Below are positions 16,488 to 60,150 of a stretch of 64,000 bases of DNA, one piece after another. A program made the position numbers and the translations under genes. Below the pieces are notes generated by a model, which was not told where the DNA came from, made no database searches, and worked only from the letters and a program-made list of their open reading frames with translations. The stretch's first letter is position 1. Every line of letters begins with the position of its first letter. The DNA comes from Acidobacteriota bacterium (GTDB lineage: Bacteria; Acidobacteriota; Thermoanaerobaculia; Multivoradales; JAGPDF01), in contig JACTMI010000004.1 of assembly GCA_014584695.1 (NCBI GenBank), positions 128,006 through 192,005 on the forward strand, in the 5' to 3' direction.

Positions 16488-16518
16488 CCAGGGCGCCGGG
16501 AGTCTCCGAGACGGGACG

Positions 16519-17841: not shown

Positions 17842-17945
17842 CTCTGGAGCTTATCGTCGCGCGCCCCCGCGGCGCCCGCCTCTTGCCGGCGGCCCCGCGC
17901 CACCGGGTTAGACTGGCCTGGTCTACCTGTTCTGGAGGTGTCGCC

Positions 17946-22091: not shown

Positions 22092-22133
22092 GCGCCGGCG
22101 GCCGGCGCGGCCGGCCACGTAGAATGCCGCGTC

Positions 22134-27905: not shown

Positions 27906-30056
27906 CTACGGCCCGGCCTCGATGGTCAGGGGGGTGGTCGTGCCGGCGACTCGCCGACCGTCTCCATCGACGACCTGGAGCTCCAGCAGGTAGGTGCCCG
28001 GAGCCGCGGCCGTCGCCGCCAGTGTGCCCCGCCACTTCGCCATGCCCGGCGAGCCGGCCGGCGACGTCTCGATCTCGACTCGCGGCGGCGGCGCCGGGCC
28101 GCCGCGCGGCTCGCGCAGCGCGGCCTCGACCCGCAACGGGCCCGCCGGCAGATCGTAGCCCACCAGCAGGAAGGGCGCCGGCGAGCCGTCCGCTCGAATG
28201 CGCGGCGCGGCCTGCGGAACGAACGGCTCGCCCGCGACCACGAACGGATAGACGAGGCTGTCGGCCTCTCCCTCCGGCGGCGACTCGCGCGCCAGGAGCC
28301 ACCGCCCGCCCAGATCGAAGAGGAAGGGCGGCAGGAGCCGCGGCGCGCGCGCCGAAGCCGCCGGCACGTGGAGCGGGAGCGTGGCGAGGCCGGTGCGCCC
28401 GCCGCGCCCCTCGCGGGCGAGCGCGACGAGGCGATAGTCGCCCCCGGCCAGGTCGAGGTGGCCGTAGTACTTGAAGCCGTCGAGACCGCGCGCGGCGGCG
28501 GTCGGGGAGTCGTCGAGCGCCACCCGCCGCGCGAGGAAGTCGCGCATCTCGCCGCTGCTGTGGATCGCGTAGACGTAGATCTCGAGCGGCAGCGGTCCCG
28601 CCGGGACCTCGGGAAAGAGCCCCCGGGATCCGATCTCGAGGACCACGGGGACGTAAGCCTCTTCCCCGCCGGAGCGAAACGGCGCGGCGAGCGCACGGAC
28701 CTCGAGCGCCGCGGCGGGACGCTCGAGCGCGATCGTCTCGGCGGCGAGCAGAGCCTTCTCGAAGGGGTGGAGCTCGGGGAACGGCCGCGGCGCGTAGAAG
28801 CCCGCGCGGTGGGCGACGCGCAGGCCGCGGCCACCGACGACGCGCACCGCCAGCGGATGGAAGGCGCCGTCGTCCGCGATGCCGGTGGCCGCGACGGTCA
28901 GCAGATAGGCCTGCGAGGAGCGGCGCAGGGCTCGTCCGATGGCGGCGTGCAAGTCGTTGCCCTCGTCGACCAGCGAGCCGCCGCTGCCGTGGGCCAGGTG
29001 GAAGAGCGCTTCGGTGCCGCGAGCCGAGGACAGCCCATCGGCGCCGCCGCGCAGCCCTCCGACGTCGACCGCGTGCGCGACGCAGTCGGCGCGCCCGAGC
29101 TCGGTCAAGAGGCGCTCGACCTCGCCTTGGAGCTGGGTGTTGCCGAACCGCTCGTCGGAGTCGACCTGCCAGATCTGTCCGGTCTGGAGCTCCAGGTTGC
29201 CGAGCGCGTCCTCCTCGCCCCGCGGATTGGACCGCCCGAGCAGCAGGGCGCTGTCGAAACCCTCCGAGAAGAGCAGGATCTGCTTGCGCCCGGGCACCTC
29301 GGCCAGCCGACGCGAGAGCCAGGCCAGCTCGCGCGCCCAGCCGATGACCCGGGTGCGCTCGTACTGCCGGTGCTCGCGTGCCGCGGCGTGCGCGAGGATG
29401 CGCGAGCTCTCGAGGTCGATCTGCTCGATCTCGGCGCGCAGGTCGCCGCTGCCGGAGACGGCGACGCTGCCCGCGACCGCCGGGCTCGAGAGGCCTGGCA
29501 GCAGGAAGCCGAGGGGATCGAGGTGGGCCGTCGCGGCGCGTCGGTGCTCGAAGCTGGAGCTGTCGAGGGCGCGCGCGACCTGCGCCCGGTCGGGGGTGAA
29601 GGTGAGGAGCAGTCGGGGTCCGAGATCGGCCGAGAAAGTGGCGACTCCCACCAGGTCGGTCGGATGGAGCTCGTGCAGCACGACCTCCCGCGCCGCCTGG
29701 CGGGCGCGGGCGAGCGCGCCGGGGTTCGAGAAGGTGAGATCGAAGAGCAGCAGCACGTGCCGGCGGTAGCGCGGAGGCGGCCCCGCGGCCTCGGGTCGGG
29801 CGAGCGCGGACGCGGCCGGCCGGGCGCCGAAGTGGAGCGCCTCGAAGCCGACGATCTCGAGGCGGCGCCGGCCACGCCGGACCTCGAATCGATCGGCGGT
29901 GAGGCCCGCGACCGGCTCGCCGTCGCGGTCCAGCACCTCGACGGCCACCTCGACCTCGAGCACGTCGAGACGCCCCTCGAAGCGCGGCGCCACGGGCTGC
30001 GTGGCGGCGAGACCGGCCGCGGCCAGCGCACCCGCGAGCGCGACGAGGCTCTTCAC
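27906..30056 (-). CDS. secreted VWA-domain protein, VWFA-related Acidobacterial-domain family (paralog A)
   Basis: Signal peptide MKSLVALAGALAAAGLAA; VWA core (HVLLLFDLTFSN..., ILLFSEGFDS, GNTQLQGEVERLL..ADCVAHAVDVGGL); GTGA overlap with the upstream transglutaminase-TPR gene. Confidence 0.75.
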   Translation of the reverse strand: MKSLVALAGALAAAGLAATQPVAPRFEGRLDVLEVEVAVEVLDRDGEPVAGLTADRFEVRRGRRRLEIVGFEALHFGARPAASALARPEAAGPPPRYRRHVLLLFDLTFSNPGALARARQAAREVVLHELHPTDLVGVATFSADLGPRLLLTFTPDRAQVARALDSSSFEHRRAATAHLDPLGFLLPGLSSPAVAGSVAVSGSGDLRAEIEQIDLESSRILAHAAAREHRQYERTRVIGWARELAWLSRRLAEVPGRKQILLFSEGFDSALLLGRSNPRGEEDALGNLELQTGQIWQVDSDERFGNTQLQGEVERLLTELGRADCVAHAVDVGGLRGGADGLSSARGTEALFHLAHGSGGSLVDEGNDLHAAIGRALRRSSQAYLLTVAATGIADDGAFHPLAVRVVGGRGLRVAHRAGFYAPRPFPELHPFEKALLAAETIALERPAAALEVRALAAPFRSGGEEAYVPVVLEIGSRGLFPEVPAGPLPLEIYVYAIHSSGEMRDFLARRVALDDSPTAAARGLDGFKYYGHLDLAGGDYRLVALAREGRGGRTGLATLPLHVPAASARAPRLLPPFLFDLGGRWLLARESPPEGEADSLVYPFVVAGEPFVPQAAPRIRADGSPAPFLLVGYDLPAGPLRVEAALREPRGGPAPPPRVEIETSPAGSPGMAKWRGTLAATAAAPGTYLLELQVVDGDGRRVAGTTTPLTIEAGP

Positions 30057-31165
30057 CGCGCCTCCGGCGGCAGCCGCGTCGCGAGCCGCAGCGCTTCCGG
30101 ATGCGTCGCGTCCAGACGCAGCGCCCGGGACAGATGGTGCCGCGCGCGGGACAGGTCACCGACCGCGAGGTAGGTCTGCGCCAGGGCGACGTGGACCTCG
30201 GGCAGCTCGGAGTCTTGCCGCAGCGCCTCGGTCAGATACTCGAGCGCTCGCAGGGGCTCGTCCTGGGCGAGGGCGAGCTGTCCGCGGTAGACGAAGAAAT
30301 AGGGATTCGACACGCGCAGGGCTTCGAGCCGGTCGAGCACCCGGGAGGCCTCGTCGAGGCGGCCCGCGCGCTGGTGGAGCCGCGCCAGGTTGTTGAGCAG
30401 CGCCGGCTCCTCCGGGGCGAGCGCCAGACCGGTGGCGTAGGCCGCTCCGGCGCCCGCTTCGTCCCCACGCCGAGCCCGCGCCACCCCGAGGTTGTTCCAG
30501 GCGCGAGCGAAACCGGGCGCCACCCGGACCGCGGTCGCGAGCAGCTCGGCCGCGCGCTCGGCGTCGTCGGCGAGCAGCGCTTCCGCGGCGAGATTGTTGT
30601 AGAAGTGGGCGACCGCCGTGACGTCGTCGATCGGCCGGAAGCTCCGGTAGGGCTTCGGTCGGTACGGCAGGAAGTCGTAGGTTCGCAGCGTCCCGTCGAC
30701 GCGGAGCCCCGCGACCACGTGCCCCTGGCTCACCACCATGCCGTGAGAGTGGCTCCAGCTCTGCGCGTCCTCGACCTCGACGTAGAAGGCGGCGAGCCGG
30801 TCGGCGCGCGCCAGTCCAACGAAGAGATTGACGAACGAGAGGCAGTTGCCCTGCCGGCTCCGGTAGGCGCCGGCGGCGTCGCGGGTGGGGCGGAGCCGGT
30901 ACTCGAGCCGCAGGTCGCCGAAGACGAAGTCGGCAAGGGCCGCGGCGCGCCGGACCTCGCTGGCCGAGCCGGTGCGGCGGCGTTCGGCCAGCGCCGCCAG
31001 CTCGGCGTCCAACTCGAAGGGGACGAGGACCTCCAGGGCCTGGTCGCCCATCCGGTCGACTAGCGTCGCACGGAGGTGGCGGGCCGAATCGAAGGGCTGG
31101 TAGGTGGCGCAGCCGGCCAGGCTGAGGGCCAGCAACCAGCCCCGCGGTCGATCAGCCCGGCGCAT
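30053..31165 (-). CDS. lipoprotein with a transglutaminase-like cysteine-protease core and C-terminal TPR repeats
   Basis: Lipobox LALSLAGC; GNCLSFVNLFVGLARA (TGase Cys motif) with downstream His/Asp; at least four TPR units (AWNNLGVARARRGDEAGAGAAYATGLALAP...). Confidence 0.7.
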   Translation of the reverse strand: MRRADRPRGWLLALSLAGCATYQPFDSARHLRATLVDRMGDQALEVLVPFELDAELAALAERRRTGSASEVRRAAALADFVFGDLRLEYRLRPTRDAAGAYRSRQGNCLSFVNLFVGLARADRLAAFYVEVEDAQSWSHSHGMVVSQGHVVAGLRVDGTLRTYDFLPYRPKPYRSFRPIDDVTAVAHFYNNLAAEALLADDAERAAELLATAVRVAPGFARAWNNLGVARARRGDEAGAGAAYATGLALAPEEPALLNNLARLHQRAGRLDEASRVLDRLEALRVSNPYFFVYRGQLALAQDEPLRALEYLTEALRQDSELPEVHVALAQTYLAVGDLSRARHHLSRALRLDATHPEALRLATRLPPEAR

Positions 31166-31509
31166 TCCGCAGTCTCTCTCTCGCGGTGCCGGCCCGCAAG
31201 ATGCCGCGGCCAGCGAAGTCTCGGACCGGCCCCGGCCAGGGTCGGTCCGACGCAGCAATCACCGCGCTCGTAAGGGGGGAGCGGGCGCTCGCGAGCCGCA
31301 GCTACCAGCCCGCGACCGGCCCAAGTCGGCCCCGAGGAATGACGATTGGGCACTGATTTGGCCCCACTTGCCCCAGCAGCGTTTCGGGTTAAACTGGCCG
31401 GACCAGTCGAAGCCGGAAGGAGGTGACGGAACCCGCGCGGTGGCTCTCGCGCGGGCGGGGTGGAGAAGCCCTTAGCTGAACGGACTTCATCAATGACCCG
31501 AGAAGGAGG

Positions 31510-34323
31510 TTGAGAAAGATGACAGGACGGAGTGTTTGGAGTCGCTGCGCGGCGATCGTCGGAGTGATCCTGATGATCGGCAGCGCCCCCCTGCTCGGCC
31601 AGGCTCAGGCCGGCACCATCTTCGGCACGACCCAGGACGAACAGGGTGCCGCCCTGCCGGGTGTGACCGTGACCATCCGGGGCGGTGGCGCGCCGGTCGT
31701 GGTCGTTTCGGATGCGCAAGGCGCCTTCCGCGCGGTGGGTCTGCCCCCGGGCAGCTACCACCTGAGCGCGGCGCTCGAGGGCTTCGCCACCGTCGAGTAC
31801 CCGAGCGTCAACGTCGCCGTCGGCCGCAACACGACCCTCGAAGTGCGGATGCAGGCCGCGGTCGAGGAGACGATCACGGTCACGGCCGAGTCGCCGCTGC
31901 TCGACTCGCGGCGCATCACCGCGGGCGCCCAGGTCAGCCAGGTGGAGCTCGAGAAGATCCCGAGCGCGCGCGATCCCTGGGTGATCCTGCAGACCACGCC
32001 GGGCGTGCTCGTCGACCGGGTCAACGTCGGCGGCAACGAATCGGGCCAGCAGTCGACCTACACCGGCCCGGGTGACGACGGCACCAACTCGACCTGGTCG
32101 ATCGACGGCGTCGAGATCACGGACATCGGCGCCATCGGCTCGTCGCCTTCGTACTACGACTTCGACGCCTTCGAGGAGATGCAGGTGACGAGGCGGCAGC
32201 GACGCGACGTTGCGCACCGGCGGCGTCGGCCTGAACATGGTGACCAAGCGCGGCACCAACCAGTGGCGCGGCACGGCCCGCTACCTCTACTCGGACGACT
32301 CCTGGCAGTCGAACCTCAACTTCGACCGCGGTGAGCTGGCGCCCGGCCAGCCCGCCTTCGCCCAGGGCAACCGGATCGTCGAGGTCACCGACTGGGGCGG
32401 CGACATCGGTGGCCCGATCGTCAAGGACAAGCTGTGGTTCTGGGCCTCTTACGGCGAGAACGACATCCGCCTGCTGACGGTGCTCGACGTGCCGGACAAC
32501 ACGCTGCTCAGATCAAGATCGGGCGCAACGCCTCGCCGACGCGGCCGCCGGAGACGACCTGGAACCAGGGCGGCTATGGCGGCGGGCCGACGGTGCTCAA
32601 GGTCGAGGACACCCACATCTTCTCCTCGGCCTTCTTCCTCTCGGCGATGTACTCGGAGACCAACGGCAGCTTCCAGCTCGCCCCCCAGGGCGGCTTCACG
32701 CCGACCCAGAACAAAGCGGCCCTGGACGAGGACTTCATCTGGCGCAACACCTTCCTCTTCTACGGCAGCAAGCGGCCGCAGGACCAGGCGAAGGTCGACG
32801 GGTCCTACTTCTTCGGCACCGGCAACCTGAGCCACGAGCTGAAGTTCGGCACCAGCTACCGCGAGGGTGAGATCCGCTCGCTGTCCCGCTGGCCGGGCGG
32901 CGGCATCGACCTCAACTTCTACGAGCAGTACGGCTACGCCTACAACATCGTTCAGCTGACCAACGACGGCATCACCAACTACAACGTCCGCTACACCAAC
33001 GCCTACGTCCAGGACACCATCACGACCGGTAACCTGACGCTCAACGTTGGCGCGCGCTACGACAAGCAGGACGGCAAGCAGCTGGCGGGTGTCTCGGCGG
33101 CGAATCCGACTTTCCCGGCGCTGATTCCGCAGCGGACATTCGGGGGTCAGGACATCGGCTTCGACTGGACCTCGATCAGCCCGCGTCTGGGTCTGACCTA
33201 CAACGTCGGCGGCGCCAACCGGACGCTCCTGCGGGCGAGCTACTCCCGCTTCGCCGAGCAGTTGTCGGGCCTGGCGGCGTCGTGGACCTACCCGCTCTAC
33301 CCGTACACTTCGGTCTACACCTACTACGACGACCGCAACGGCGACGGCCACTCGCAGGCCAACGAGATCATCCCGGGAGTGCTGTTCAACTCGGGCAACT
33401 ACAATCCGGCGAACCCGTCGCAGATCGTCATCTCCTCGGCCGTCGACTCCAACCTCGACCCGCCGATGACCGACGAGCTGCTGCTCGCCTTCGAGCACGC
33501 CGTGCGGCCGGAGTTCGTGGTCGGCGTGAACTTCACCTACCGGCTGACCACGGACATCCTGGAGAACGAGCGGTTGGTCTTCGACGGTGACGCCACGTCG
33601 CCGGCGAACATCAACAGCCTCGGCCGCGTCCATCGGCGCAGCGACTACGTGCAGACCGGCACTGTCAACGTGACGCTGCCCAACGGGCAGGCGAGGTCGA
33701 TCCCGGTCTACGGGCTGCGGCCCGGAGTCACGACGCGCAACAACAACTCGCTCGGCGTCCAGTCCGGTGGCTTCCTGACCAACGGCGACCGCGAGCAGGA
33801 GTACATGGGCGTCTCCTTCACGTTCAACAAGCGGCTGTCGAACCGCTGGATGGCGCGCGGCAACTTCACCTGGTCGGACTGGGAGTGGAAGGTCCCAGAG
33901 AGCGAGCGGGAGGATCCGAACCAGTCCTTCGGCGGCGGCAACCGGGACGGCGACGCGGTGGTGACCTGCGTCGGCACCGGTTCGGGGGCCAAGGCCGGGG
34001 TGTGCATCAACAGCAGCTGGTCGTACAGCCTCAACTGGGTGCGAGCGCCGCAGGGTGGTATCAGCGGCGTCTACAACTTGATGGTCACCGACCGGCCGGA
34101 TCAGTTCCGGGCCGACGACATCCACGTCGTCGACCTGCGAGTCGAGAAGGAGTTCACTTTCGACCGCGTCGGGCTGACCGTCGGCGCGGACGTGTTCAAC
34201 GTCTTCAACGAGGGCACCGTGCTGCAGCGCGAGCTGCGGCTCGGCCAGGCGCAGGGCAACTTCGTTCGCGAGGTGCTCTCGCCCCGGGTGTTCCGACTCG
34301 GCGCCCGGTTGAGCTTCAACTGA
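31510..34323 (+). pseudogene. TonB-dependent-receptor-like outer-membrane protein (CarboxypepD_reg + plug + beta-barrel), copy 1, disrupted by two compensating frameshifts
   Basis: GAAGGAGG RBS and signal peptide; frame switches +1 at about 32191 (after FEEMQVT) and back at about 32510 (after LDVPDNTLL); C-terminus ARLSFN; three track ORFs (31510.., 32210.., 32434..) tile the gene. Confidence 0.6.
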
Positions 34324-34688
34324 TCGCCGCCTGACGCCTGATCGCGCGCCGCCGGACCTTCGGGACCGGCGGCGCGCGGTGTTTTCGGCCGCCTCCCGCT
34401 CCGCCGGGATGGATCGCCCCACCGCGCCTGCCTGAACGACGAGGGACCAATCGCGCTTGACGGGGGCGAGGCGGCGGTCCGCGGACCGGGAGTCCCACTC
34501 GTCGCCCTCCGAGCGCTGGCTCCCGCCTTGCTCCCGGAGCTCCTCACACGCGAACCCGTGAAGCCACGCCGGCCCCAGCGGGCGGCCGGAGAGAGCGCCA
34601 GCAAAGAGCTCAGGGGCCAACGGACCGCGCGACCGCCCGCCGCATGGCGCGGCCGGGCGAACCGCTCGCAGCGGGAAGGAGCATCGGC

Positions 34689-37532
34689 ATGAGAAGCAGG
34701 ATCTCGTGGTACCGAAGCGCCGCGATCCTCGGCGCGGCCTGGCTGGTCGGCGCGGCGGCAGCCGTCGGCCAGGTGCAGTCGGGCAATGTCTACGGCACCG
34801 TCAGGGACGCCGCCGGCGCCCCTCTTCCGGGCGTCGTCGTCACCATGACCGGCGGCGGCGCTCCCGCCGTCCAGGTCTCGGACGCGCAGGGGACGTTCCG
34901 CGTTCTCGGCCTCAGCCCCGGGACCTATCAGCTCGTCGCCGCGCTGGACGGCTTCGCCAACGTCGAGTACCCGAGCGTGACCGTCGCCGTCGGCCGCAAC
35001 ACTTCGCTCGAGATCACGATGCAGTCGGCGATCGAGGAGACGATCACGGTCACGGCCGAGTCGCCGCTGCTCGATTCGCGGCGCATCACCGCGGGCGCCC
35101 AGGTCAGCCAGGTGGAGCTCGAGAAGATCCCGAGCGCGCGCGATCCCTGGGTGATCCTGCAAAGCACGCCGGGCGTGCTCGTCGACCGGGTCAACGTCGG
35201 CGGCAACGAATCGGGCCAGCAGTCGACCTACACCGGCCCCGGCGACACCGGCGCCAACGCCGCCTGGTCGATCGACGGCGTCGAGATCACGGACATCGGC
35301 GCCATCGGCTCGTCGCCTTCGTACTACGACTTCGACGCCTTCGAGGAGATGCAGGTGACGAGCTGCGCACCGGCGGCGTCGGGATGAACATGGTGACCAA
35401 GCGCGGCACCAACCAGTGGCGCGGCTCGGCCCGGCTGCTGCGCGCCGAAGACTCCTGGCAGTCGGACCTCGACTTCGACCGCGGCGACCTGGCGCCGAAC
35501 CAGCCCGCCTTCGCCCAGGGCAACCGGATCGTCAGCGTCGAGGACTACGGCGCCGAGCTCGGCGGCCCGATCGTCAAGGACAAGCTGTGGTTCTGGGCCT
35601 CTTACGGCGAGAACGACATCCGCCTGCTGACGGTGCTCGACGTGCCGGACAACACGCTGCTCGGCGACCTTCTTCTACTCGAACAACGAGAAGATCAAGA
35701 TCGGGCGCAACGCCTCGCCGACGCGGCCGCCGGAAACGACTTGGAATCAGGGCGGTTGGGGCGGCGGTCCGACGGTCGTCAAGGTCGAGGACACGCAGGT
35801 CTTCTCCTCGAGCTTCTTCGCCTCGGTGATGTACTCCGAATCCAATGGCAGCTTCCAGTTGACGCCGCAGGGCGGCACCTCGCCGACCCAGAACAAGGCG
35901 TCGCTGGACGAGAACTTCGTGTGGGGAAACACCTTCCTGTTCTATGGCAGCAAGCGGCCGCAGACCCAAGCGAAGGCCGACGGGTCCTACTTCTTCGGCA
36001 CCGGCAACCTGAGCCACGAGCTGAAGTTCGGCACCAGCTACCGCGAGGGCGAGATCCGGTCGCTGACCCGCTGGCCGGGCGGCGGCATCGACCTGAACTT
36101 CTACGTCGCCAACTACGGCTACGCCTACAACATCGTCCAGCTGACCAACGATGGCATCTGGAACTACGACGTCGAGTACACGAACGCCTACGTCCAGGAC
36201 ACCATCACGACCGGCAACCTGACCGTGAACTTCGGCGCCCGCTACGACCTCCAGGGCGGAACGCAGCGGGCCGGAGTCGCGGCGGCGAATCCGACTTTTC
36301 CGGCGCTCATTCCGGAGCGTCGCTTCGCGGGCCAGGACATCGGCTTCGAGTGGTCGACGATCAGCCCGCGCCTGGGTCTGACCTACAACGTCGCCGGCGG
36401 CAACCGGACGCTGCTGCGGGCGAGCTATGCCCGCTTCGCCGATCAGCTCTCCGGCCTGGCCGCCGGCTGGACCTACCCCCTCTATCCCTACACTTCGGTC
36501 TACACCTACTACGACGACCGCAACGGCGACGGCCATTCACAGGGCAGCGAGATCATCCCCGACGTGCTGTTCAACTCCGGCAACTACGACCCGGCCAACC
36601 CGTCCCTGATCCTGTTCTCTTCGGCCGTCGACCCGGGACTCGACGCGCCGGTGACCGACGAGCTCCTGTTCGCGGTCGAGCATGCCCTCCTGCCGGAGTT
36701 CGTGGTCGGGCTCAACCTGACTTACCGGCTGTCGACCGACCTGCTGGAGCAGGAGCGCCTGGTCTTCGACGGCGACCCCTACTCGGCGACCAACGTGCGC
36801 AGCGTCGGCCGCGTCCACCGGCGCGACGACTACGTCCAGACCGGCACCGTCACGGTGACGCTGCCGGGCGAGTCGACGCCACGACAGGTGCCGGTCTACG
36901 GACTGCGGCCGGGGGTCGGAACCCGCAACGGCAACGTCCTGGGCGTCCAGCAGGGGGGCTATCTGACCAACGGCGACCGGGAGCAGGAGTACCTGGGAGT
37001 CTCGTTCACGTTCAACAAGCGGCTGTCGAACCGCTGGATGGCGCGCGGCAACTTCACCTGGTCGGACTGGGAGTGGAAAGTGCCGGAGAGCGAGCGGGAG
37101 GATCCGAACCAGCTGTTCGGCGGTGGCAACCGGGACGGCGACGCGGTGGTGACCTGCGTCGGCACCGGTTCGGGGGCCAAGGCCGGGGTGTGCATCAACA
37201 GCAGCTGGTCGTACAGCCTCAACGAGGGCTACGCGATGCCCTATTGGGTTCGCGCGAGCCTAGCGGGCGTCAGTGGCGCCTACTACCTGAACATCACCGA
37301 CCGGCCGGATCAGTTCCGGACCGACGACGTGCACACGCTCGATCTCCGGGTCGAGAAGGAGCTGACGTTCGATCGCTTCGGCCTCACGCTCGGGATCGAC
37401 GCGTTCAACGTCTTCAACTCCGGCACGGTCCTGCAGCGGGAGCTGCGGCTCAATCAGGGACAGGGAGACTGGGTGCGCGAGGTGCTCTCGCCCCGGGTCT
37501 TCCGGGTGGGCGCGCGGCTCAGCTTCAACTAG
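34689..37532 (+). pseudogene. TonB-dependent-receptor-like outer-membrane protein, copy 2 (tandem paralog), disrupted at the same two positions
   Basis: GGAAGGAG RBS and signal peptide MRSRISWYRSAAILGAAWLVGAAAAVGQ; frame switches at about 35361 and about 35668; otherwise collinear with copy 1 with high amino-acid identity. Confidence 0.6.
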
Positions 37533-37647
37533 CGCCCAGCCGGCTGTCGCGGTGAGGAGGGCGCCGCCGGGCCACGGCTCGGCGGCGCCCCGGCTTTCTT
37601 GGGGAGCCGCGGCGCCGGAGTGTAGACTCGCGAGCGAGGAGCCGAGG

Positions 37648-38592
37648 ATGAATTCCACCAACCTGTCGCGTACGGCGGTGGCGCTGCTGCTCGGGCTGGC
37701 GGTGCTCCTGCCGGCCACCGGGACCGCGCAGGACTGGAAAGGGCGTGGCCGCATCCAGGGCGAGGTGACCGACGAGCGAGGAGCGCCCGTCGCCGCGGCC
37801 AGCGTGACGCTGCGTTGGGGCGTGGCGCCCGACCAGGGACCGGCGCCGCTCGCCACCGACAGGAAGGGCAAGTGGTCCTTTCTGGGGCTGGTCGGCGGGG
37901 CCTGGATCGTGCTCGTCGAGGCGCCGGGCTTCGTGCCTCAGGAGGGATCGGTCCAGGTCAACGAATTCGGCGCGGTGCCGCCGATCAAGATGAAGCTGCG
38001 GCCGGCGGAGGCGAGCGCCGCGCCGGTCGATCCCGCAGTCGCGGCGATCGAGGAGGGCAACCGCCTCCTGGGCGAGGGGCGCCACGCGGAGGCGCGGGCC
38101 GCCTACGAGCGCTCGCTCGCCGATCTGCCGGCGGCGAGCCGTCCGGCGGTGATGCGGGCCGTCGCGCGCACCTGGTTCGACGGCGGCGATGCGGCGCGCG
38201 CGATCACCGTGCTCGAAGAGAGCCTGGCGCTCGCGCCGGACGACGCCGAGTCGCTGCGCTTGATCGTCACCCTGCTGGTCGCGGCCGGCCGGGAGGCCGA
38301 CGCCCGCGCCTACATGGCCCGTCTCCCCGCCGGTGCCGAGGTCGACGCCGACACGCTGCTCAACCTGGGCATCGATCTCTACAACCAGAACCGGCTCGAG
38401 GAGGCGCTGGCCGAGTTCGACCGCGTCGTGACGCAGCAGCCGACGCTCCCCGATGCCTATTACTACCGGGGCCTCGCGCGCCTCGGGCTGGGGCGCGGCG
38501 AAGAGGCCAAGGCCGACTTCCAGAAGCTGCTCGACCTCGACCCGAGCCACGCCAAGGCCGAGGATTGCCGACAGTTCCTCTCCTCGCTCTGA
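37648..38592 (+). CDS. secreted protein with an N-terminal CarboxypepD_reg-like domain and C-terminal TPR repeats
   Basis: Signal peptide; GRIQGEVTDERGAPVAAASVTL prealbumin-like unit; TPR-like helices (AYYYRGLARLGLGRGEEAKADFQKLLDLDP). Confidence 0.6.
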   Translation: MNSTNLSRTAVALLLGLAVLLPATGTAQDWKGRGRIQGEVTDERGAPVAAASVTLRWGVAPDQGPAPLATDRKGKWSFLGLVGGAWIVLVEAPGFVPQEGSVQVNEFGAVPPIKMKLRPAEASAAPVDPAVAAIEEGNRLLGEGRHAEARAAYERSLADLPAASRPAVMRAVARTWFDGGDAARAITVLEESLALAPDDAESLRLIVTLLVAAGREADARAYMARLPAGAEVDADTLLNLGIDLYNQNRLEEALAEFDRVVTQQPTLPDAYYYRGLARLGLGRGEEAKADFQKLLDLDPSHAKAEDCRQFLSSL

Positions 38593-38618: not shown

Positions 38619-40706
38619 GTGCGTCGCGCAGGCTCTCCGCTGCCGCTCGCCGGTCTGCTCGTCGCGCTCGCGGCCGCCGGTGCTTGTGACTCCGGGCGCG
38701 AGGCGGCGGCGCCGCCACCCCCGGCGGCGCGCCCGGACGTCGTGCTGATCACCGTCGATACGCTGCGCTGGGACGCGGTCGGATTCGCCGGCAACTCGCG
38801 AGTGCGGACGCCGACGCTCGACCGGCTCGCGGTCGCCGGCAGGGTCTTCACCGACGCGCACGCCCACAACGTCGTCACGCTGCCGTCCCACGTCAACATC
38901 CTGACCGGGCTCTATCCCTTCCAGCACGGCGTCCGCGACAACGCCGGCTTCGTGCTCGGCGAGGAGGTTCCGACGCTGGCGACGCTCTTGTCGGCCGCGG
39001 GTTACGCCACCGGGGCCTTCGTCGCGGCCTACCCGCTCGATCGGCGCTACGGACTAGCCCGCGGCTTCGACCTCTACGACGACCGATTCCGCCGCGGCAC
39101 CGACCCGGCCGCCTTCGTCATCGCCGAGCGGCGCGGCGACGAGGTCGTGGCCAATGCGCTCGGCTGGTGGCGCTCGGCGGCCGGACGCCCGCGGTTTCTC
39201 TGGCTCCACCTCTACGATCCCCACGCCGCCTACGAGCCGCCCGAGCCGTTCGCCTCGGAGTATCGCGATCACCCCTATCTCGGCGAGGTTGCGGCGACGG
39301 ACGCCTTCCTGACGCCGTTGCTCGCGCCGCACCTCGACGGCGCCGAACCGCCGGCCCTCGTCCTGTTCACTTCGGACCACGGCGAAGCGCTGGGCGCGCA
39401 CGGCGAGCTGACCCATGGACTGTTCGCTTACGAACCGACGCTCAAGGTTCCGCTCGTCCTCTGGGGTCCGGGCGTCGAGCCCGGGCGCGACGGCCGCGCG
39501 GCGCGCCACGTCGACATCGTCCCCACGGTCCTCGAGGCGCTCGCGCTCGCGCCGCCGGGGCGACTGCCCGGCCACTCGCTCCTCGGACCCCCGGGCGCCG
39601 GGGTCGAGACCTACTTCGAGGCCCTGACCACCGCCCTGCACCGCGGCTGGGCGCCGCTCTTCGGCGTCATCCGCGACGGCGTCAAGGTGGTCGATCTGCC
39701 GGAGCCCGAGCTCTACCGTCTGGTCGAGGATCCCGAGGAGCGAGAAAACCGCTACGGCGCCGAGGCCGCGCTCGCGCGCGAGCTGCTGGCGCGGCGACCG
39801 GCCACCGCGTGGCCGCCGCAGCGGCCGGCGGCGAGCGGCGACGAGGAGGCGGCCCGGCTGCGCAGCCTCGGGTACCTGGTGGGCTCGGCGCCGCTGCGCG
39901 AGGCGTTCGGTCCCGAGGACGACCCGAAGCGGTTGGTCGGTCTCGACCGCCAGATCCACCTGGCGATCGATCACTACTCACGCGGCAGGTTCGCCGAGGC
40001 GGCGCGCCTCGGCGCCGCGATCGCGCGCGATCGCCCGGGGATGGCCGACGGCTACACGATGGGCGCGCTCGCGCTGCGTCAGCTGGAGCGCCACGAGGAG
40101 GCGATCGCGCTGCTCGCGACCGGCCGCGAGCGGACCGGCGGCGACGAGTCGGTGGTGCGCGCCCTCGGGCTCGCGCTCGCCGAGACCGGTCGCGCCGGCC
40201 GGGCGGTGGAGCTGCTTTCCCCCCTCGAGACGACGGGCCAACCCGAGACGCTGCGCGCCCTGGCGACCGCGCTCGCCGACGCGGGCGAGCCCGAGCGGGC
40301 GCGGCGGGTCCTCGACCGCGCGCTGCGGGAGCTGCCGGACGACCCGCGGGCGATCGAGCTCGCTGGCGTCATCGCCCTGCGCGACGGCCGTCCCGAGGAG
40401 GCGCGTCGTCACCTCGAACGGGCGCTCGAGCTCAACGACGAGCTGGCGACCGCCTGGAACTCGCTCGGCGTCGCGCTCTATCCGATCGAGGGTCCACGCG
40501 CCGCTCTGGGTGCCTGGCAGCGGGCGGTCGAGCTCGATCCGCGGCAGTTCGACGCGCTGTTCAACCTCGGGCTCGTGGCGGCGAGCGTCGGCGAACGAGA
40601 GCTGGCGCGGCGCGCGCTCGAGCAGTTCCTGCGCACCGCCCCGCCGGAACGCTACGCGCCAGACTTCGCGCGCGCCCGCGGACTGCTCGTCGAGGTGGCG
40701 GGATGA
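38619..40706 (+). CDS. lipoprotein: sulfatase-fold (alkaline-phosphatase superfamily) domain with Thr at the nucleophile position, plus C-terminal TPR domain (paralog 1)
   Basis: GTG start; lipobox-like LAAAGAC; VLITVDTLRWD metal-site motif; TLPSHVNILTGLYP in place of the C/SxPxR formylglycine motif; TSDHGE..HG; TPR repeats after about residue 430. Confidence 0.7.
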   Translation: MRRAGSPLPLAGLLVALAAAGACDSGREAAAPPPPAARPDVVLITVDTLRWDAVGFAGNSRVRTPTLDRLAVAGRVFTDAHAHNVVTLPSHVNILTGLYPFQHGVRDNAGFVLGEEVPTLATLLSAAGYATGAFVAAYPLDRRYGLARGFDLYDDRFRRGTDPAAFVIAERRGDEVVANALGWWRSAAGRPRFLWLHLYDPHAAYEPPEPFASEYRDHPYLGEVAATDAFLTPLLAPHLDGAEPPALVLFTSDHGEALGAHGELTHGLFAYEPTLKVPLVLWGPGVEPGRDGRAARHVDIVPTVLEALALAPPGRLPGHSLLGPPGAGVETYFEALTTALHRGWAPLFGVIRDGVKVVDLPEPELYRLVEDPEERENRYGAEAALARELLARRPATAWPPQRPAASGDEEAARLRSLGYLVGSAPLREAFGPEDDPKRLVGLDRQIHLAIDHYSRGRFAEAARLGAAIARDRPGMADGYTMGALALRQLERHEEAIALLATGRERTGGDESVVRALGLALAETGRAGRAVELLSPLETTGQPETLRALATALADAGEPERARRVLDRALRELPDDPRAIELAGVIALRDGRPEEARRHLERALELNDELATAWNSLGVALYPIEGPRAALGAWQRAVELDPRQFDALFNLGLVAASVGERELARRALEQFLRTAPPERYAPDFARARGLLVEVAG

Positions 40707-42988
40707 GCCCCGCGCCGCGGCGGAGCGGGCTCCTGGTGGCGGTGCTGCTGGCGGCCGTCGCCAGCGGCTGCCGGCCGCAGGAGGACGCGCTCCGCTTCCC
40801 GCGGGCGCCGATCGTCCTGATCTCGATCGACACGCTGCGGGCGGATCGTCTGCCGGCCTACGGCTACGATGGGGTCGAAACGCCGTCACTCGACGCCCTG
40901 GCGAGCGAATCGTTGCTGTTCGAGAGCGCCTGGAGCCACTACCCGCTGACCCTGCCCTCGCACACCTCGATGCTTTCCGGCCTGCTGCCGCCCCGTCACG
41001 GCGTCCGCGACAACGCGGGCTACGAGCTGGAGGCGGGCATCCGGCCCTGGCTCCCCGAGCGGCTGCGCGCGGCCGGGTACGCCACGGGCGCGTTCGTCTC
41101 GAGCTACGTGCTGCGCGGCGCGACCGGACTCGCGCGCGGCTTCGACCACTACGATGACGAGATCGAGCGCCCGGCGGGCGCCAGCCTCGACGCGGCGCAG
41201 CGCGAGGGTCTGGCGACCGTGGCGCGCGCCGCGGCCTGGGTGCGGGAACGGAGCGAGACGCCGTTCTTCCTCTTCCTCCATCTCTACGAGCCGCACACGC
41301 CCTACGCTCCGCCGGAGCCCTTCGCTTCACGCTACGCGGATCCCTATGACGGCGAAATCGCCACGGTCGACCTGGTCGTCGGCGGCTTTCTCGAGGAGCT
41401 GCGGCGCCTCGGCCTCTACGAGCGGTCGATCCTGGTCTTCACCGCCGATCACGGCGAGGGGTTGGGCGACCACGGCGAGCAGCAGCACGGCGTCTTCCTC
41501 TACCCGAGCACGACCCACGTACCGTTGCTGCTCAGGCTCCCCGGCGCGCGCCGCGGGGGCGAGCGGATCGCGGACGCCGTGGCGCTCGCCGATCTCGCCC
41601 CGACGCTCGCCGGCCTGGCCGGGATCGAGCTCGGCGCGAGCGCCGACGGCAGCTCGTTGCTCGCGGCGAAGGCGGGTGACGCCGCCCAACGCCGGATCTA
41701 CGCCGAGACCTACTACCCGCGCCTCCACTTCGGCTGGAGTGACCTCAAGGCGTTGCACGACGCGCGCTGGAGCTTCGTCGAGGCCCCCGAGCCGGAGCTC
41801 TACGATCGTCTCGCCGATCCGCGGCTCGAGACCAACCTGGTCGAGCGCGAGCGGCGCCTGTTCGCCGCGCGGCGCGCGGAGGTGCGCGAGATCGACCGGC
41901 CGCTCGCTGCCCCCGCCGCTGCGGACGAGGAGACGGCGGCGCGGCTGGCCGCGCTCGGCTACCTCTCGGGCGGCTCACGGACGCTCGAAGGGCCGCTGCC
42001 GGATCCGAAGAGCCAGCGGCACCTGATCGGCGACATCGAAAACGGCTTCCTCGCCTTCGGCGAACGCCGCTTCACCGCGGCGGCCGCGCACTTCGAGCGC
42101 GTGCTCGCCGAAAACGATGGCATGTTCGACATTTGGAGCTTCCTCGCCCGCAGCCGCAAGGAGAGCGGCGACCTCGACGGCGCCGCGCGCGCCTGGGAGC
42201 GGGCGCTCGAGCTCTCGGCGGATCCGGGCGTGGCGCTCGCCGCGGCCAACGCGCTGCTCGAGCTGGGGCGCCACGCCGAAGCGCGGGCCCGCGCCGAGCT
42301 CGGGCTGGTCGGCCAGCCGCAGCCGGCGCACGATCTGCTGGTCCGGATCGCGCTCGCCGTGGGCGACGGCGCCGCGGCCGACCGCTGGTCCACCGCCGCG
42401 CTCGCCGCCGGCGTCGCGAGCGAGGGGATCCGCCGCCGGCTGGCGCTCGCCGCGGCCGAGTCGGGGCGGCCAGCGGAGGCCGCGGCGCTGCTCGACCCGG
42501 TGCGCGAGTCGGCCACCGCCGCGACGCTCGATGTGCTCGGGCTGGCGCTGTCGGACCTCGGCCGGCACGCGGAAGGGGCCGAGGTGCTCGCCCGCGCCGT
42601 CGCGCTCGAGCCGGAGGCGGCGAAGTGGCGGGAGGACCTGGGCACCGTGCTGCTGCGCGCGGGCCGCCTCGAGGAGGCACGCGCCGCGCTCGACCGCGCG
42701 GTGGCGCTCGACCGGCGCCGCGCCGGGGCCTGGACGGCGCTCGGCGTCGCCCGCTACCAGGCGGGCGACGCGCGCGGCGCGCTCGCGGCCTGGCGGACGG
42801 CGGTCGAAGTCGACCCGCGGGCATTCGACGCCCTCTACAACCTCGGTCTCGCCGCCGCGGCGGCGGGGGAGCCGGAGATGGCCCGGCGCGCGCTCGACCG
42901 CTTCCTCGCCACGGCGCCTCCGGCGCGCTACGGCGGAGACTTCCCGCGCGCGCGCGCCGCGCTGGCCCAGCTCGGAGGCGGCGGATGA
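40703..42988 (+). CDS. lipoprotein: sulfatase-fold domain (Thr nucleophile) plus TPR (paralog 2)
   Basis: ATGA overlap; lipobox LLAAVASGC; ISIDTLRADR, TLPSHTSMLSGLLP, TADHGEGLGDHGEQQHG; long C-terminal TPR array. Confidence 0.75.
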   Translation: MSPAPRRSGLLVAVLLAAVASGCRPQEDALRFPRAPIVLISIDTLRADRLPAYGYDGVETPSLDALASESLLFESAWSHYPLTLPSHTSMLSGLLPPRHGVRDNAGYELEAGIRPWLPERLRAAGYATGAFVSSYVLRGATGLARGFDHYDDEIERPAGASLDAAQREGLATVARAAAWVRERSETPFFLFLHLYEPHTPYAPPEPFASRYADPYDGEIATVDLVVGGFLEELRRLGLYERSILVFTADHGEGLGDHGEQQHGVFLYPSTTHVPLLLRLPGARRGGERIADAVALADLAPTLAGLAGIELGASADGSSLLAAKAGDAAQRRIYAETYYPRLHFGWSDLKALHDARWSFVEAPEPELYDRLADPRLETNLVERERRLFAARRAEVREIDRPLAAPAAADEETAARLAALGYLSGGSRTLEGPLPDPKSQRHLIGDIENGFLAFGERRFTAAAAHFERVLAENDGMFDIWSFLARSRKESGDLDGAARAWERALELSADPGVALAAANALLELGRHAEARARAELGLVGQPQPAHDLLVRIALAVGDGAAADRWSTAALAAGVASEGIRRRLALAAAESGRPAEAAALLDPVRESATAATLDVLGLALSDLGRHAEGAEVLARAVALEPEAAKWREDLGTVLLRAGRLEEARAALDRAVALDRRRAGAWTALGVARYQAGDARGALAAWRTAVEVDPRAFDALYNLGLAAAAAGEPEMARRALDRFLATAPPARYGGDFPRARAALAQLGGGG

Positions 42989-45144
42989 ACCGCTCGCGCT
43001 CGCTCGTGCTCGCCGCGCTCGCGCTCGTGGGCGCCGCCGGCTGCCGCCCCGGCGGCGGCGCCGCCGGCCCCTTCCCCGGCGCGCCGGTCGTGGTCATCTC
43101 GATCGACACGCTGCGCTCGGACCGGCTGCCGGTCTACGGCTACGACCGGGTCGCGACGCCCGCCATCGACGCGCTGGCGCGCGACGGGATCGTCTTCGAG
43201 CGCGCCTACACCCACGTCCCCCTGACCTTGCCGGCCCACCTCTCGATGTTCACCGGGCTGCTGCCGGGCGATCACGGCGTGCGCGACAACCTCGGCTACC
43301 GCTTCGACGCCGAGCGGCATCCCTATCTGCCACGGCTCTTCGCCGCGGCGGGCTACGCGACGGGCGGGGCGATCTCGGCCTACGTCCTGCGCGCCGAGAC
43401 CGGCTTCGCCGCCGGCTTCGAGTTCTTCGAAGGGGCCGTCGACCTGCGCTCCGGCTTGACCCTCGGCCGCAGTCAGCGCCCGTGCGGTGAGACGCTGGCC
43501 GCGTCCCGCGACTGGCTGCGGCGGGTGGCCGCGGGCCGTTTCTTCTACTTCGGCCACTTCTACGAGCCGCACACACCCTGGGAGGCGCCCGAGCCCTTCC
43601 GTAGCCGCTACGGTGACCCCTACGACGCCGAGATCGCCGCCGCCGACGCCTGCGTCGGCGAGCTGGTCGAGGAGCTGCGGCGGCTCGACGTTCTCGACCG
43701 CGCGATCGTGGTCCTGACGTCGGACCACGGCGAGGGGCTCGGTGACCACGGCGAGCAGGAGCACGGCATCCTGCTCTATCGGGAAGCTCTGCAGGTGCCG
43801 CTGGTGCTGCGCCTGCCGGGGGCGGCGCGGGCGGGGACGCGGATCTCGGCGCCGGCTCAGCTCCTCGACCTGGCGCCGACGCTGCTCCGGCTCACCGCCC
43901 TCGAGCCGCCCGCCGGGCTGGCGGGATCCCACCTGCTCGAGGCGCTGCCGGAGGAGCGGCCGATCTACGCCGAGACCTTCTACCCCCGGTTGCACATGGG
44001 ATGGAGCGAGTTGACGGCGGTGATCGCCGGGCGCTGGCACGGCATCTTCGGTCCCGACCCCGAGCTCTACGACCTGATCGAGGATCCCGCCGAGCGGCGC
44101 AACCTGCGCGACGGCGAGCGGCGCCGGTTCGCGGAGCTGCGCGAGCAGGCCGCGACCTTCGAGCGTCCGCTCGCGGCTCCGGCGGCCGAGGACGCGGAGA
44201 CGGCGGCGAAGCTCGCGGCGCTCGGCTACCTCGGCGGCGCGGCCACCGGGGCGACGACGGGGCCGCTGCCGGACCCGAAGTCGAAGCTGCCTTCACTGCG
44301 CGAGTTCGGACGCGCGCTGCAGGATCTGACCGAGCGCCAGGACTACCGCGGCGCGGCGGCACGGCTCGAACGGGTGCTGGCCGAGAACCCGCGCATGGTC
44401 GATGCGTGGGACAGCCTCGGGCTGGCGCTCCACCGCCTCGGGCGCTCGACGGAGGCGCTGGCCGCCTACGAGAAGGCGATGGAGATCTCGGGGGGAACGC
44501 CGCACGTGGCGCTCGCGGTCGGCCAGGTGCTGCTCGATCTCGGCCGCGGCGACGAAGCGCGGGCGCACGCCGAGCTGGCGCTGGCGGCGAGCCCGGCTGC
44601 GGCGCACAGCCTGGTGGCGCAGGTCGATCTCGCGGCCGGGCGGTTGGAGGCCGCCGAGGCGGCGGCGCGCCGGGCGCTCGCGGCGCGCGGCTCGCGCATC
44701 GGGCCGCTGCTCGTGCTCGCCCAGGTCCAGCGGGCGCAGGGGGAGCTCGAAGCGGCGCTGGCGACCTGCGAATCGGCGCTCGCCGACCTCGCCAAGATGC
44801 AGGGCGAGCAGAAGTTCGCCGGGCTCTACTTCGTGCACGGGGACCTGCTGGCGCGGCTCGACCGTCCGCACGACGCGGTCGCGAGCTTGCGGCGCGAGAT
44901 CGCGCTCTTCCCGGCCGAGCCTCGCGCCTACGCGGCGCTCGCGGCGCTCTACGCCGCGCACGGTCAGCCGGACGACGCGGTGGGGACGCTGCGCGCCCTG
45001 GTCGAGGGCAACCCGGACCTGCCGGTCGCCTACGCCGAGGCGGTCAAGACGCTGCGCGTCCTCGGCGATCCGCAGGGCGCCGCCGGCCTGCTCGCCGCCG
45101 CCCGCCGCCGCTTCCCCGACGAGCCCGCGCTGACCGGGCTGTAA
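42985..45144 (+). CDS. lipoprotein: sulfatase-fold domain (Thr nucleophile) plus TPR (paralog 3)
   Basis: ATGA overlap; lipobox ALVGAAGC; ISIDTLRSDR, TLPAHLSMFTGLLP, TSDHGEGLGDHGEQEHG; C-terminal TPR array. Confidence 0.75.
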   Translation: MNRSRSLVLAALALVGAAGCRPGGGAAGPFPGAPVVVISIDTLRSDRLPVYGYDRVATPAIDALARDGIVFERAYTHVPLTLPAHLSMFTGLLPGDHGVRDNLGYRFDAERHPYLPRLFAAAGYATGGAISAYVLRAETGFAAGFEFFEGAVDLRSGLTLGRSQRPCGETLAASRDWLRRVAAGRFFYFGHFYEPHTPWEAPEPFRSRYGDPYDAEIAAADACVGELVEELRRLDVLDRAIVVLTSDHGEGLGDHGEQEHGILLYREALQVPLVLRLPGAARAGTRISAPAQLLDLAPTLLRLTALEPPAGLAGSHLLEALPEERPIYAETFYPRLHMGWSELTAVIAGRWHGIFGPDPELYDLIEDPAERRNLRDGERRRFAELREQAATFERPLAAPAAEDAETAAKLAALGYLGGAATGATTGPLPDPKSKLPSLREFGRALQDLTERQDYRGAAARLERVLAENPRMVDAWDSLGLALHRLGRSTEALAAYEKAMEISGGTPHVALAVGQVLLDLGRGDEARAHAELALAASPAAAHSLVAQVDLAAGRLEAAEAAARRALAARGSRIGPLLVLAQVQRAQGELEAALATCESALADLAKMQGEQKFAGLYFVHGDLLARLDRPHDAVASLRREIALFPAEPRAYAALAALYAAHGQPDDAVGTLRALVEGNPDLPVAYAEAVKTLRVLGDPQGAAGLLAAARRRFPDEPALTGL

Positions 45145-54117: not shown

Positions 54118-54193
54118 GGGCCGCTAGCTCAATTGGTAGAGCAGCAGACTCTTAATCTGCGGGTTGTAGGTTCGATTCCTACGCGGCTCACCA
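54118..54193 (+). tRNA. tRNA-Lys (anticodon CTT), CCA encoded
   Basis: 76 nt; clover-leaf folds by hand: acceptor gggccgc/gcggctc, anticodon stem gcaga/tctgc, loop cTCTTaa, T-loop ttcgatt. Confidence 0.9.
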
Positions 54194-54266: not shown

Positions 54267-54357
<91 letters not shown>

Positions 54358-55649: not shown

Positions 55650-55668
55650 CCGCAGAGGAGAGAGAAGC

Positions 55669-56256: not shown

Positions 56257-56476
56257 GCCTCCCGTCTGTTAGAATTCGAGGGCGAGGTCGGACGGCGGCG
56301 GGAGCCGAGCGGGCGGCGCCGCGCCCGGGGGTATTGCACCCCGGCGGCGGAATAGGCACGCTCGCGGCGGGCGTTCTCCGCTGTGAGGGCCGGGGGTCCA
56401 ATCGGGCTGGGCGCCGGGCACGAGCCCGCGAGGCAACCGGCCGGCCGGGCGGCGCGTAGGGAAGGATGGAGGAGAG

Positions 56477-57715
<1,239 letters not shown>

Positions 57716-57717
57716 GC

Positions 57718-60150
<2,433 letters not shown>

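Follow-up and report, generated by a model that had tools for sequence, protein, structure and literature searches.

Within a 64,000 nt stretch of contig JACTMI010000004.1 (hereafter the window; ~73% G+C), from the assembly of an Acidobacteriota bacterium (GCA_014584695.1), we find three head-to-tail genes on the + strand, here called g1, g2 and g3, each encoding a probable lipoprotein in which an enzyme domain of the alkaline phosphatase (AP) superfamily is followed by tetratricopeptide repeats (TPR). The fold of these proteins is that of sulfatases, but their catalytic residues resemble those of enzymes that transfer phosphoryl groups. Coordinates are collected in Table 1. Direct reading gives ATGA overlaps between the genes at 40703 and 42985, the first junction being gcgggATGAgcc and the second ggcggATGAacc, and Shine-Dalgarno sequences (GAGG or GGAGG) lie 8-12 nt 5' of the starts of g2 and g3. 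Each gene is a single, uninterrupted open reading frame (ORF) with no internal stop, and the 695 aa and 761 aa products are reproduced by independent gene calls on public contigs with an identical neighbouring gene. We retrieved 268 homologues (the 120 best of a whole-protein search and the best 150 of a catalytic-domain search), of which 259 are at least 600 aa long, with a median length of 743.5 aa. The continuous ORFs and the lengths of these homologues rule out that the TPR halves are separate genes.

The three N-termini have a short basic stretch, a hydrophobic stretch and then a cysteine, with lipobox-like ends (LAAAGAC in g1, AVASGC in g2 and GAAGC in g3). In a 76-sequence alignment (A2) the conservation of this cysteine is at least 90%, and a relaxed lipobox pattern occurs in 170/241 relatives, and on this pattern match the assignment of g1-g3 as probable lipoproteins is well founded. 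The best Pfam match is PF00884 (132-141 bits), at residues ~37-308, with E-values of 3e-38 (g1), 7e-41 (g2) and 6e-39 (g3); SGSH_C matches too, and a dozen TPR families match the C-terminal halves of the three proteins. An AlphaFold2 model of g2 built on the 76 homologues (mean predicted local distance difference test score 91.7, predicted template modelling score 0.84) has an alpha/beta domain that extends to about residue 400 and, beyond a linker of low confidence, 19 helices between residues 435 and 758, equivalent to about nine TPR pairs plus a cap. In this model the catalytic domain is preceded by a single signal-peptide helix (residues 9-21), and a polytopic membrane domain of the EptA/LtaS/OpgB kind is absent from both the g2 model and the g1-g3 sequences. 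A first-pass annotation of this DNA had described three tandem genes overlapping by ATGA, each with a lipoprotein signal, and a sulfatase/AP fold continued by TPR in the same ORF; the gene layout, the fusion and both domains are borne out by direct reading, Pfam and structure prediction, and the lipoprotein signal is borne out as a pattern.

All three proteins have T-L-P-(S/A)-H, DTLRxD and (S/A)DHGE...HG motifs (in g1, VTLPSH, DTLRWD and SDHGEALGAHGELTHG). In g2, whose numbering we use throughout, the catalytic residues are D43, T83, H87, N104, H193, H198, D249, H250, E252 and H262. In HMMER alignments with five solved sulfatases, Thr83 occupies the position of the Cys/Ser nucleophile and His87 that of the Arg, with T-L-P-S-H standing opposite C-V-P-A-R (9koq), S-T-P-S-R (9bas), S-A-P-A-R (7pth) and S-T-P-A-R (7oz8). 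The Lys of the sulfatase 'GKxH' motif is S133 in g2 and its His is Y135 (Y/F; 9koq alignment), the Lys after the DHG motif is replaced by H262/G263 (7oz8 alignment), and the second metal-binding Asp/Gln is T44. Overall, 6/10 canonical residues of S1 sulfatases are replaced, while D43, the D249-H250 pair and His198 are kept. The formylglycine signature, (C/S)-x-(P/A)-x-R, is not found in g1-g3, and TxPxH is present in 152/155 related ORFs and in 269/269 aligned relatives. According to the authors of SulfAtlas, PF00884 holds many sequences with Thr at the nucleophile position, Thr is not convertible to formylglycine, and members of PF00884 that lack the signature should not be named sulfatases (PMC5066984). 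With the nucleophile, the Arg, both Lys and a His replaced, we rejected a true sulfatase identity on this residue mapping.

The best relatives in sequence and fold are nonetheless S1 sulfatases and phosphonate monoester hydrolases (PMHs), such as BT1918 (7oz8), the A. radiobacter PMH (4uph) and choline sulfatase (6fny). All 60 best listed sequence matches in PDB are sulfatases or PMHs, and all 50 best listed Foldseek matches in PDB are formylglycine sulfatases or PMHs (E 1e-18 to 1e-15, alignments of 430-530 columns, TM-score 0.55-0.70 relative to the target). The arylsulfatase and choline-sulfatase models are the best NCBIfam matches, at 81-142 bits, under their cutoffs of 433-481. The two-subdomain fold, the first metal Asp, the D-H pair and the His of the 'PH.P' motif are common to g1-g3 and these enzymes. 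In contrast to them, g1-g3 have Thr in place of a Cys/Ser-derived formylglycine, His for Arg, Ser/His for both Lys and Tyr/Phe for the general-base His, and they add an invariant His193, a putative lipoprotein signal and a C-terminal TPR region of about 300 aa.

The nucleophile loop points to a different branch of the superfamily, the nucleotide pyrophosphatases/phosphodiesterases (NPPs; ENPP1/3, Xanthomonas NPP 2gsn; PF01663). These enzymes share T-x-P-x-H...TG..P..HG(I/V)..N with g1-g3, as well as the Thr nucleophile and a His-rich site. Opposite the NPP enzymes the aligned g2 segment is YP-LTLPSHTSMLSGLLPPRHGVRDN, and N104 lies 21 residues after Thr83, as in NPP. When the 36-residue nucleophile segment alone was searched against PDB, ENPP3, ENPP1 and the Xanthomonas NPP ranked before any sulfatase; the E-values are weak for so short a query (0.02-0.07), but the ranking is clear. 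By this alignment T-x-P-x-H...N is the NPP nucleophile motif and not that of LtaS/EptA. PF01663 matches g1-g3 above its cutoff at 30-57 bits, well below the PF00884 score; sulfatases are closer than NPPs in overall fold and over most of the sequence, and no NPP is among the 50 best listed Foldseek matches. The invariant H193, H198 and H262 are candidate ligands for an NPP-like second zinc (Asp/His/His), their position being taken from sequence only.

Other parts of the site resemble the zinc site of the phosphoethanolamine (PEtN) transferases EptA, LptA and MCR-1, with which g1-g3 share both residues and spacing in (D/E)TxRx(D/E), LH-x4-H-x-P and DHGE-x9-HG. With E. coli EptA as the reference, hhalign (probability 95.7) places ADHGEGLGDHGEQQHG opposite SDHGESLGENGIYLHG, and local alignments place FLFLH193LYEPH198TP against VIVLH380TIGSH385GP and VLISIDTLRAD against ILIVGETSRAE. 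In MCR-1 the Zn1 ligands are Glu246, Thr285, Asp465 and His466, and His395 and His478 are conserved, their equivalents in LptA binding a second zinc (PMC5031297). D43, T83, D249 and H250 of g2, together with H198 and H262, correspond one-to-one to these six residues. Unlike the transferases, g1-g3 have no N-terminal five-helix membrane domain and their nucleophile motif differs; the profile comparison with EptA aligns about 100 of about 400 residues, and the NCBIfam models for EptA/MCR give 15-25 bits where their cutoffs are 500-1250.

The residues in question hardly vary. D43, R46, D48, T83, H87, H193, H198, D249, H250 and H262 are identical in 269/269 sequences, E252 and H257 are present in 268 and N104 in 267, and such invariance of nucleophile and metal ligands is the pattern expected of active enzymes. 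Combining a sulfatase-like overall sequence and fold with NPP/EptA-like catalytic residues, g1-g3 appear to be hybrids of a sulfatase-type scaffold and an NPP/EptA-type catalytic constellation. By these comparisons they fall outside every characterised family, being neither S1 sulfatases nor PEtN transferases nor NPPs. The first-pass annotation had placed Thr and His at the formylglycine motif and rejected formylglycine sulfatases, and active-site mapping agrees on both counts: no Cys/Ser plus Arg is found there, and the site matches that of Thr-nucleophile phosphoryl-transfer enzymes. Its view that the Thr/His motif is typical of LtaS/EptA/MdoB needs correcting: T-x-P-x-H is the NPP motif, and it is the zinc-site residues that match MCR-1/LptA. 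Its choice of phosphotransferases over sulfatases stands for the class of chemistry, but sulfatases and PMHs are by far the nearer relatives in sequence and fold, ahead of EptA/LtaS.

Proteins of this type are numerous. Searching with g2 and scoring 8,000 candidates, we obtained at least 7,558 proteins at E<=1e-10. The 120 top-ranked ones all combine PF00884 with TPR in 723-846 aa, and their identity is 45-59% except for one at 98%; the best relatives come from metagenome-assembled genomes of Thermoanaerobaculia and other Acidobacteriota, and their source names include 'sulfatase-like hydrolase/transferase', 'choline-sulfatase' and 'arylsulfatase A-like enzyme/PilF'. An exhaustive search with only the catalytic domain yielded, for clusters at 50% identity, 21,133 representatives at E<=1e-30 and 68,979 at 1e-10. 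At least 584 encoding loci are present in species-representative genomes, nearly all of them Acidobacteriota, among them Thermoanaerobaculia, Vicinamibacterales, Holophagales and 'Ca. Multivorans'. The marks of the family, all seen in g1-g3, are PF00884 with TxPxH, an 'LxALGYL...DPK' linker and C-terminal TPR in a protein of about 700-800 aa (invariant columns in alignments A1 and A2). We found no publications on this enzyme-TPR family in the searchable literature.

Reciprocal BLAST against the triplets of two distant genomes (loci L001 and L003) gave clean 1:1 orthology: g1 with L001_c and L003_a (59-63% identity), g2 with L001_a and L003_b (52%), and g3 with L001_b and L003_c (50-59%; 54% for L003_c). 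Identity between the groups is 32-56%, the g2- and g3-type groups being mutually closest, and the gene order of the triplet is rotated in L001. The TPR region of the g1 type is shorter by about 55 aa, and the g3 type is without the last ~44 aa, a C-terminal motif common to g1 and g2. When 153 catalytic domains from 84 loci were clustered by distance, the g1 type and the g2/g3 type fell into separate clades, and a g1-type gene adjoins a g2/g3-type gene in about 30 loci. Tandem enzyme genes are common, with two or more in 39/84 loci and three or more in 11/84. These comparisons suggest that the triplication is old and has been retained, the paralogues probably being ancient and non-redundant, which argues for non-redundant roles or a heteromeric assembly. 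Two proteins hold two complete enzyme-TPR units in one chain, P0122 (1549 aa) and P0123 (1469 aa). Along with P0121, whose tail looks out of frame, they are fusions of tandem paralogues (1317-1549 aa).

Upstream of g1, on the same strand, are two copies of a gene for an Oar-like outer-membrane protein (OMP) of TonB-dependent type and a gene for a CarboxypepD_reg-TPR protein (Table 1). The order OMP, CarboxypepD_reg-TPR and then two to four enzyme-TPR genes recurs in loci L001, L015, L019, L030-L034, L078, L084, L085, L086 and others. The CarboxypepD_reg-TPR gene is found upstream of the enzyme genes in all of the loci just named and also in L003, where it is followed by three enzyme genes and there is no OMP directly upstream. 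Among the 60 loci with enough upstream sequence, an OMP is immediately upstream on the same strand in 16, and an OMP-like gene is within 10 kb in 40. The earlier report of a CarboxypepD_reg-TPR protein and receptor-like OMPs as neighbours was therefore correct, and their order is conserved.

Table 1. The enzyme-TPR genes of the window and the genes and elements near them.
Feature	Coordinates	Strand	Description
TIGR03436 'acidobact_VWFA' protein	25717..27885	-	722 aa; NCBIfam
TIGR03436 'acidobact_VWFA' protein	27906..30056	-	716 aa; NCBIfam
Transglutaminase-core + TPR protein	30053..31165	-	370 aa; divergent from the OMPs; conserved beside the cassette in the closest relatives
Sigma-54-type -24/-12 element (candidate)	31348..31363	+	GGGCACTGATTTGGCC; 171 nt upstream of the start of OMP copy 1
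Oar-like TonB-dependent-type OMP, copy 1	31519..34323	+	CarboxypepD_reg + Plug + beta-barrel; three frames
Oar-like OMP, copy 2	34644..37532	+	CarboxypepD_reg + Plug + barrel; three frames
Hairpin	37559..37590	+	14 bp, 13 G-C pairs, then T-rich tail CGGCTTTCTT; between OMP copy 2 and the CarboxypepD_reg-TPR gene
CarboxypepD_reg + TPR protein	37648..38592	+	314 aa from ATG 37648; Pfam
g1	38619..40706	+	GTG start; 695 aa; AP-superfamily (PF00884) enzyme + TPR, lipoprotein-type
g2	40703..42988	+	761 aa; AP-superfamily (PF00884) enzyme + TPR, lipoprotein-type
g3	42985..45144	+	719 aa; AP-superfamily (PF00884) enzyme + TPR, lipoprotein-type

The OMPs have the CarboxypepD_reg N-terminal domain, Plug and large barrel of Myxococcus xanthus Oar, a TonB-dependent transporter that is required to secrete the protein PopC (PMC6434023). 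Unlike Oar, the acidobacterial OMPs are known here from genes alone, and both copies in the window are frameshifted. Copy 1 is read in the pieces 31519-32190, 32192-32515 and 32509-34320, and copy 2 in the pieces 34689-35381, 35366-35656 and 35661-37529. The breaks fall at the same two places in both copies, after 'EEMQVT' and after 'DVPDNTLL', by different small deletions. Intact orthologues are about 1000 aa long (L001 5658-8711, L085 3595-6573), and all other genes of the window are intact. Independent short-read contigs all end inside the OMP genes, whose two copies share near-identical stretches, and neither g3 nor the frameshifted OMP fragments had a record in exact look-ups. The breaks are either true pseudogenization or an assembly error induced by the repeat.

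On the other side of the OMPs, the two TIGR03436 proteins score 132 and 143.5 bits (cutoff 81.25), and these ~720 aa proteins have no sequence match in PDB. This pair and the transglutaminase-TPR gene are kept beside the cassette in L001, L015, L019, L034, L078 and L085. The genes 3' of the trio are convergent metabolism genes (AMP-ligase, agmatine-deiminase-like, enoyl-CoA hydratases and thiolase). L001 has a second, convergent cassette (16452-22175, - strand) that consists of a CarboxypepD_reg-TPR protein, a CarboxypepD_reg OMP (983 aa) and a PF01663 (NPP-type)-TPR enzyme (628 aa) with Ser at the nucleophile position and the same 'LxALGYL' linker as the sulfatase-fold enzymes. Since one AP-superfamily domain has here been swapped for another in an analogous cassette, this supports a phosphodiesterase-like task.

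When we aligned seven transglutaminase/OMP intergenic regions, we observed a conserved TGGCAC-N5-TTGCT, 155-281 nt upstream of the OMP start, that reads as the sigma-54 -24/-12 consensus. A strict sigma-54 pattern has seven occurrences in 3.03 Mb of related loci (both strands), and 5/7 are at the OMP-upstream position; a relaxed pattern is present upstream of 8/8 OMPs with an N-terminus at least 55.7% identical to that of the L001 OMP. We noted a sigma-54-type element before the OMP gene in the six loci that keep the TIGR03436 pair and in L035. The element in the window is supported by this positional conservation and not by its own match score. Further upstream, two TCCAAG-N4-TTGGA palindromes in 5/7 regions are candidate sites for an enhancer-binding protein. 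A second sequence one mismatch from the sigma-54 consensus, TGGCTCCCGCCTTGCT, lies at 34517-34532, about 110-170 nt upstream of OMP copy 2, in a region that is not homologous to that upstream of copy 1. Genes at 1592-2509 (+), 5720-7090 (-) and 7087-8775 (-) include two for sigma-54 activators (the first two), with no shown link to the cassette; one of the two is an NtrC-type response regulator that adjoins a HAMP histidine kinase. The hairpin after OMP copy 2 may be an intra-operon attenuator or terminator; it is a pattern match only, and such sites are no commoner here than in shuffled sequence. An Rfam scan of the window found two tRNAs only and no riboswitch or leader, a sigma-70 promoter scan found nothing, and a terminator scan was at chance level apart from this hairpin.

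Based on these observations, we consider it slightly favoured that g1-g3 are lipid-anchored hydrolases that use a Thr nucleophile and metal for phosphoryl transfer, docked through their TPR and encoded in a transporter operon. The components of this explanation differ in likelihood. Thr/metal phosphoryl transfer, rather than sulfatase chemistry, is what the active-site residues make quite probable; between hydrolase and transferase we lean towards hydrolase; and a role coupled to the transporter is a tentative suggestion, which we think doubtful. On this explanation, the three proteins would be exported, lipidated and probably periplasmic metallo-enzymes that have kept the two-subdomain scaffold of arylsulfatases and PMHs, with an active site re-tooled for phosphoryl transfer. 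Each would bind one or two divalent metals. Thr83 would become the nucleophile through activation by a metal that D43, T83, D249 and H250 hold; a second site, for metal or phosphate as in LptA/MCR-1, would be made by H198 and H262, with H193 and E252 near it; and N104 would bind a phosphoryl oxygen. Thr83 would attack a phosphate mono- or diester, giving a covalent phospho-Thr intermediate that is resolved by water. Hydrolysis is favoured by the lack of a membrane domain, by the NPP-type nucleophile loop and by the nearest relatives being soluble hydrolases.

In enzyme-TPR fusions such as BepA and OGT, the TPR serves as a docking arm, and the TPR superhelix of g1-g3 (about nine pairs) may likewise be a docking module. 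Its arms might join the three paralogues to one another, or link them with the CarboxypepD_reg-TPR protein and the Oar-like OMP, and transcription of the entire operon apparently starts at a promoter of sigma-54 type. SusC/SusD-type loci co-encode an outer-membrane transporter with lipoproteins of TPR-like helices and hydrolases; in g1-g3, the TPR module is instead fused to the enzyme itself, and the likeness drawn is one of logic. In a more elaborate and rather unlikely version, a fixed hetero-oligomer of the three lipoproteins would dock via its TPR arms and the CarboxypepD_reg-TPR adaptor onto the Oar-like OMP, as a sigma-54-controlled, Acidobacteriota-specific machine coupling the cleavage of phosphodiester macromolecules or organophosphates to transport. 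If true, this machine would parallel in function the SusCD systems of Bacteroidota or Oar-dependent export, and its enzyme would be a clade of the AP superfamily not recognised before, intermediate between sulfatases, NPPs and PEtN transferases.

Several points weigh against the explanation we favour. The geometry of the metal site is inferred from sequence alignment, and no biochemical data on any family member were found in the searchable literature. Both OMP genes in the window are broken, adjacency of an OMP is strong only in closer relatives and looser across the family, and such OMPs are so abundant in Acidobacteriota that some adjacency is expected by chance. The sigma-54 element of the window has one mismatch and taken alone is no better than chance. 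By tblastn with E. coli PstS, PstC, PstA and PhoU over 1.54 Mb, phosphate-uptake genes (pstSCA, phoU) were detected in 1/90 loci, and we rejected a link to the Pho regulon. The EptA-like residues, moreover, fit a transferase equally well, and anchoring by a lipid could place the enzyme at the head groups of the membrane.

Those last two points belong to the reading in which g1-g3 are periplasmic phosphotransferases, whose Thr would take a phosphoethanolamine, phosphoglycerol or phosphocholine head group off a membrane lipid and hand it to an acceptor in the envelope (polymer, lipid or protein) that the TPR selects. In its favour, g1-g3 have each of the six residues that make up the zinc site of PEtN transferases, at the same spacing, the anchor would hold the enzyme at the membrane surface, TPR would suit protein or polymer acceptors, and in L003, L013 and L084 PMT_2 (GT-C) + TPR genes adjoin the cassette. 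However, a single N-terminal helix takes the place of a polytopic membrane domain, the EptA/MCR models score far below their cutoffs, the closest relatives in fold and sequence are soluble hydrolases and the nucleophile motif is that of NPP hydrolases. PMT_2 is a neighbour in only 3/90 loci, and we rejected a link to a GT-C/PMT_2 envelope glycosyltransferase on that count. We regard transfer as unlikely. The absent membrane domain and the rarity of PMT_2 also leave the first-pass proposal of a dedicated system for modifying surface polymers or lipid head groups without backing; uptake or processing of a substrate would account for the conserved transporter partner of TonB-dependent type no less well than envelope modification.

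The enzymes might also be catalytically silent, the AP-fold domain being part of a scaffold or substrate-binding lipoprotein that holds a ligand for the transporter, as SusD-type proteins do for SusC. Fusion to a large TPR module, the adjacent TonB-dependent-type OMP and the three paralogues, which might suggest structural roles, are all compatible with this, but the nucleophile and metal ligands are 100% conserved in 269 sequences that are 41-62% identical in the catalytic domain, and we think a silent domain very improbable. We would give a slightly smaller chance still to true sulfatases, or hydrolases of sulfate or sulfonate esters, with an unusual nucleophile. Such an identity would agree with the best Pfam, NCBIfam and structural matches and with the public annotation of relatives as 'choline-sulfatase' or 'arylsulfatase A-like', whereas C/S-x-P-x-R is lacking, the Arg, one His and both catalytic Lys have given way to other residues, the NCBIfam scores are far below cutoff, and Thr cannot yield formylglycine (PMC5066984).

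The family is already in the databases, functionally unexplored and generally misnamed: database proteins of this type that carry the label 'sulfatase', 'choline-sulfatase' or 'arylsulfatase A-like' number at least in the tens of thousands. Their active sites argue for the handling of phosphate esters, so inferences about sulfur cycling from such annotations of Acidobacteriota metagenomes would be wrong, and a potentially important organophosphate-processing activity may have been overlooked in soils and sediments. What sets the family apart is its hybrid active site on a sulfatase scaffold, its fusion to TPR, its conserved tandem of heterotypic genes and its cassette with OMP and sigma-54-type element. 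A natural hybrid that joins the scaffold of sulfatases to the nucleophile loop of NPPs and a zinc site of EptA type would bear on how the nucleophile and charge preference switch within the AP superfamily, and the three paralogues, together with the TonB-dependent-type OMP, the TPR adaptors and the sigma-54-type promoter, are a testable candidate for a new envelope complex.

The CarboxypepD_reg-TPR and transglutaminase-TPR products are identical in more than 90 blocks of public sequencing-run assemblies (L087-L096), indicating that this organism, or one almost identical to it, occurs widely in public data sets; among named organisms the best relatives are Thermoanaerobaculia. Elsewhere in the window, a 1381 aa protein with seven CarboxypepD_reg repeats (E 3e-109) is encoded at 17946-22091 (+), between phosphofructokinase and flavin oxidoreductase genes. 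The two tRNA genes are at 54118-54190 and 54267-54352, and tig-clpP-clpX-lon, a GTPase gene and rho follow at 54381-60150, a tRNA and housekeeping cluster that marks the window as core chromosome.

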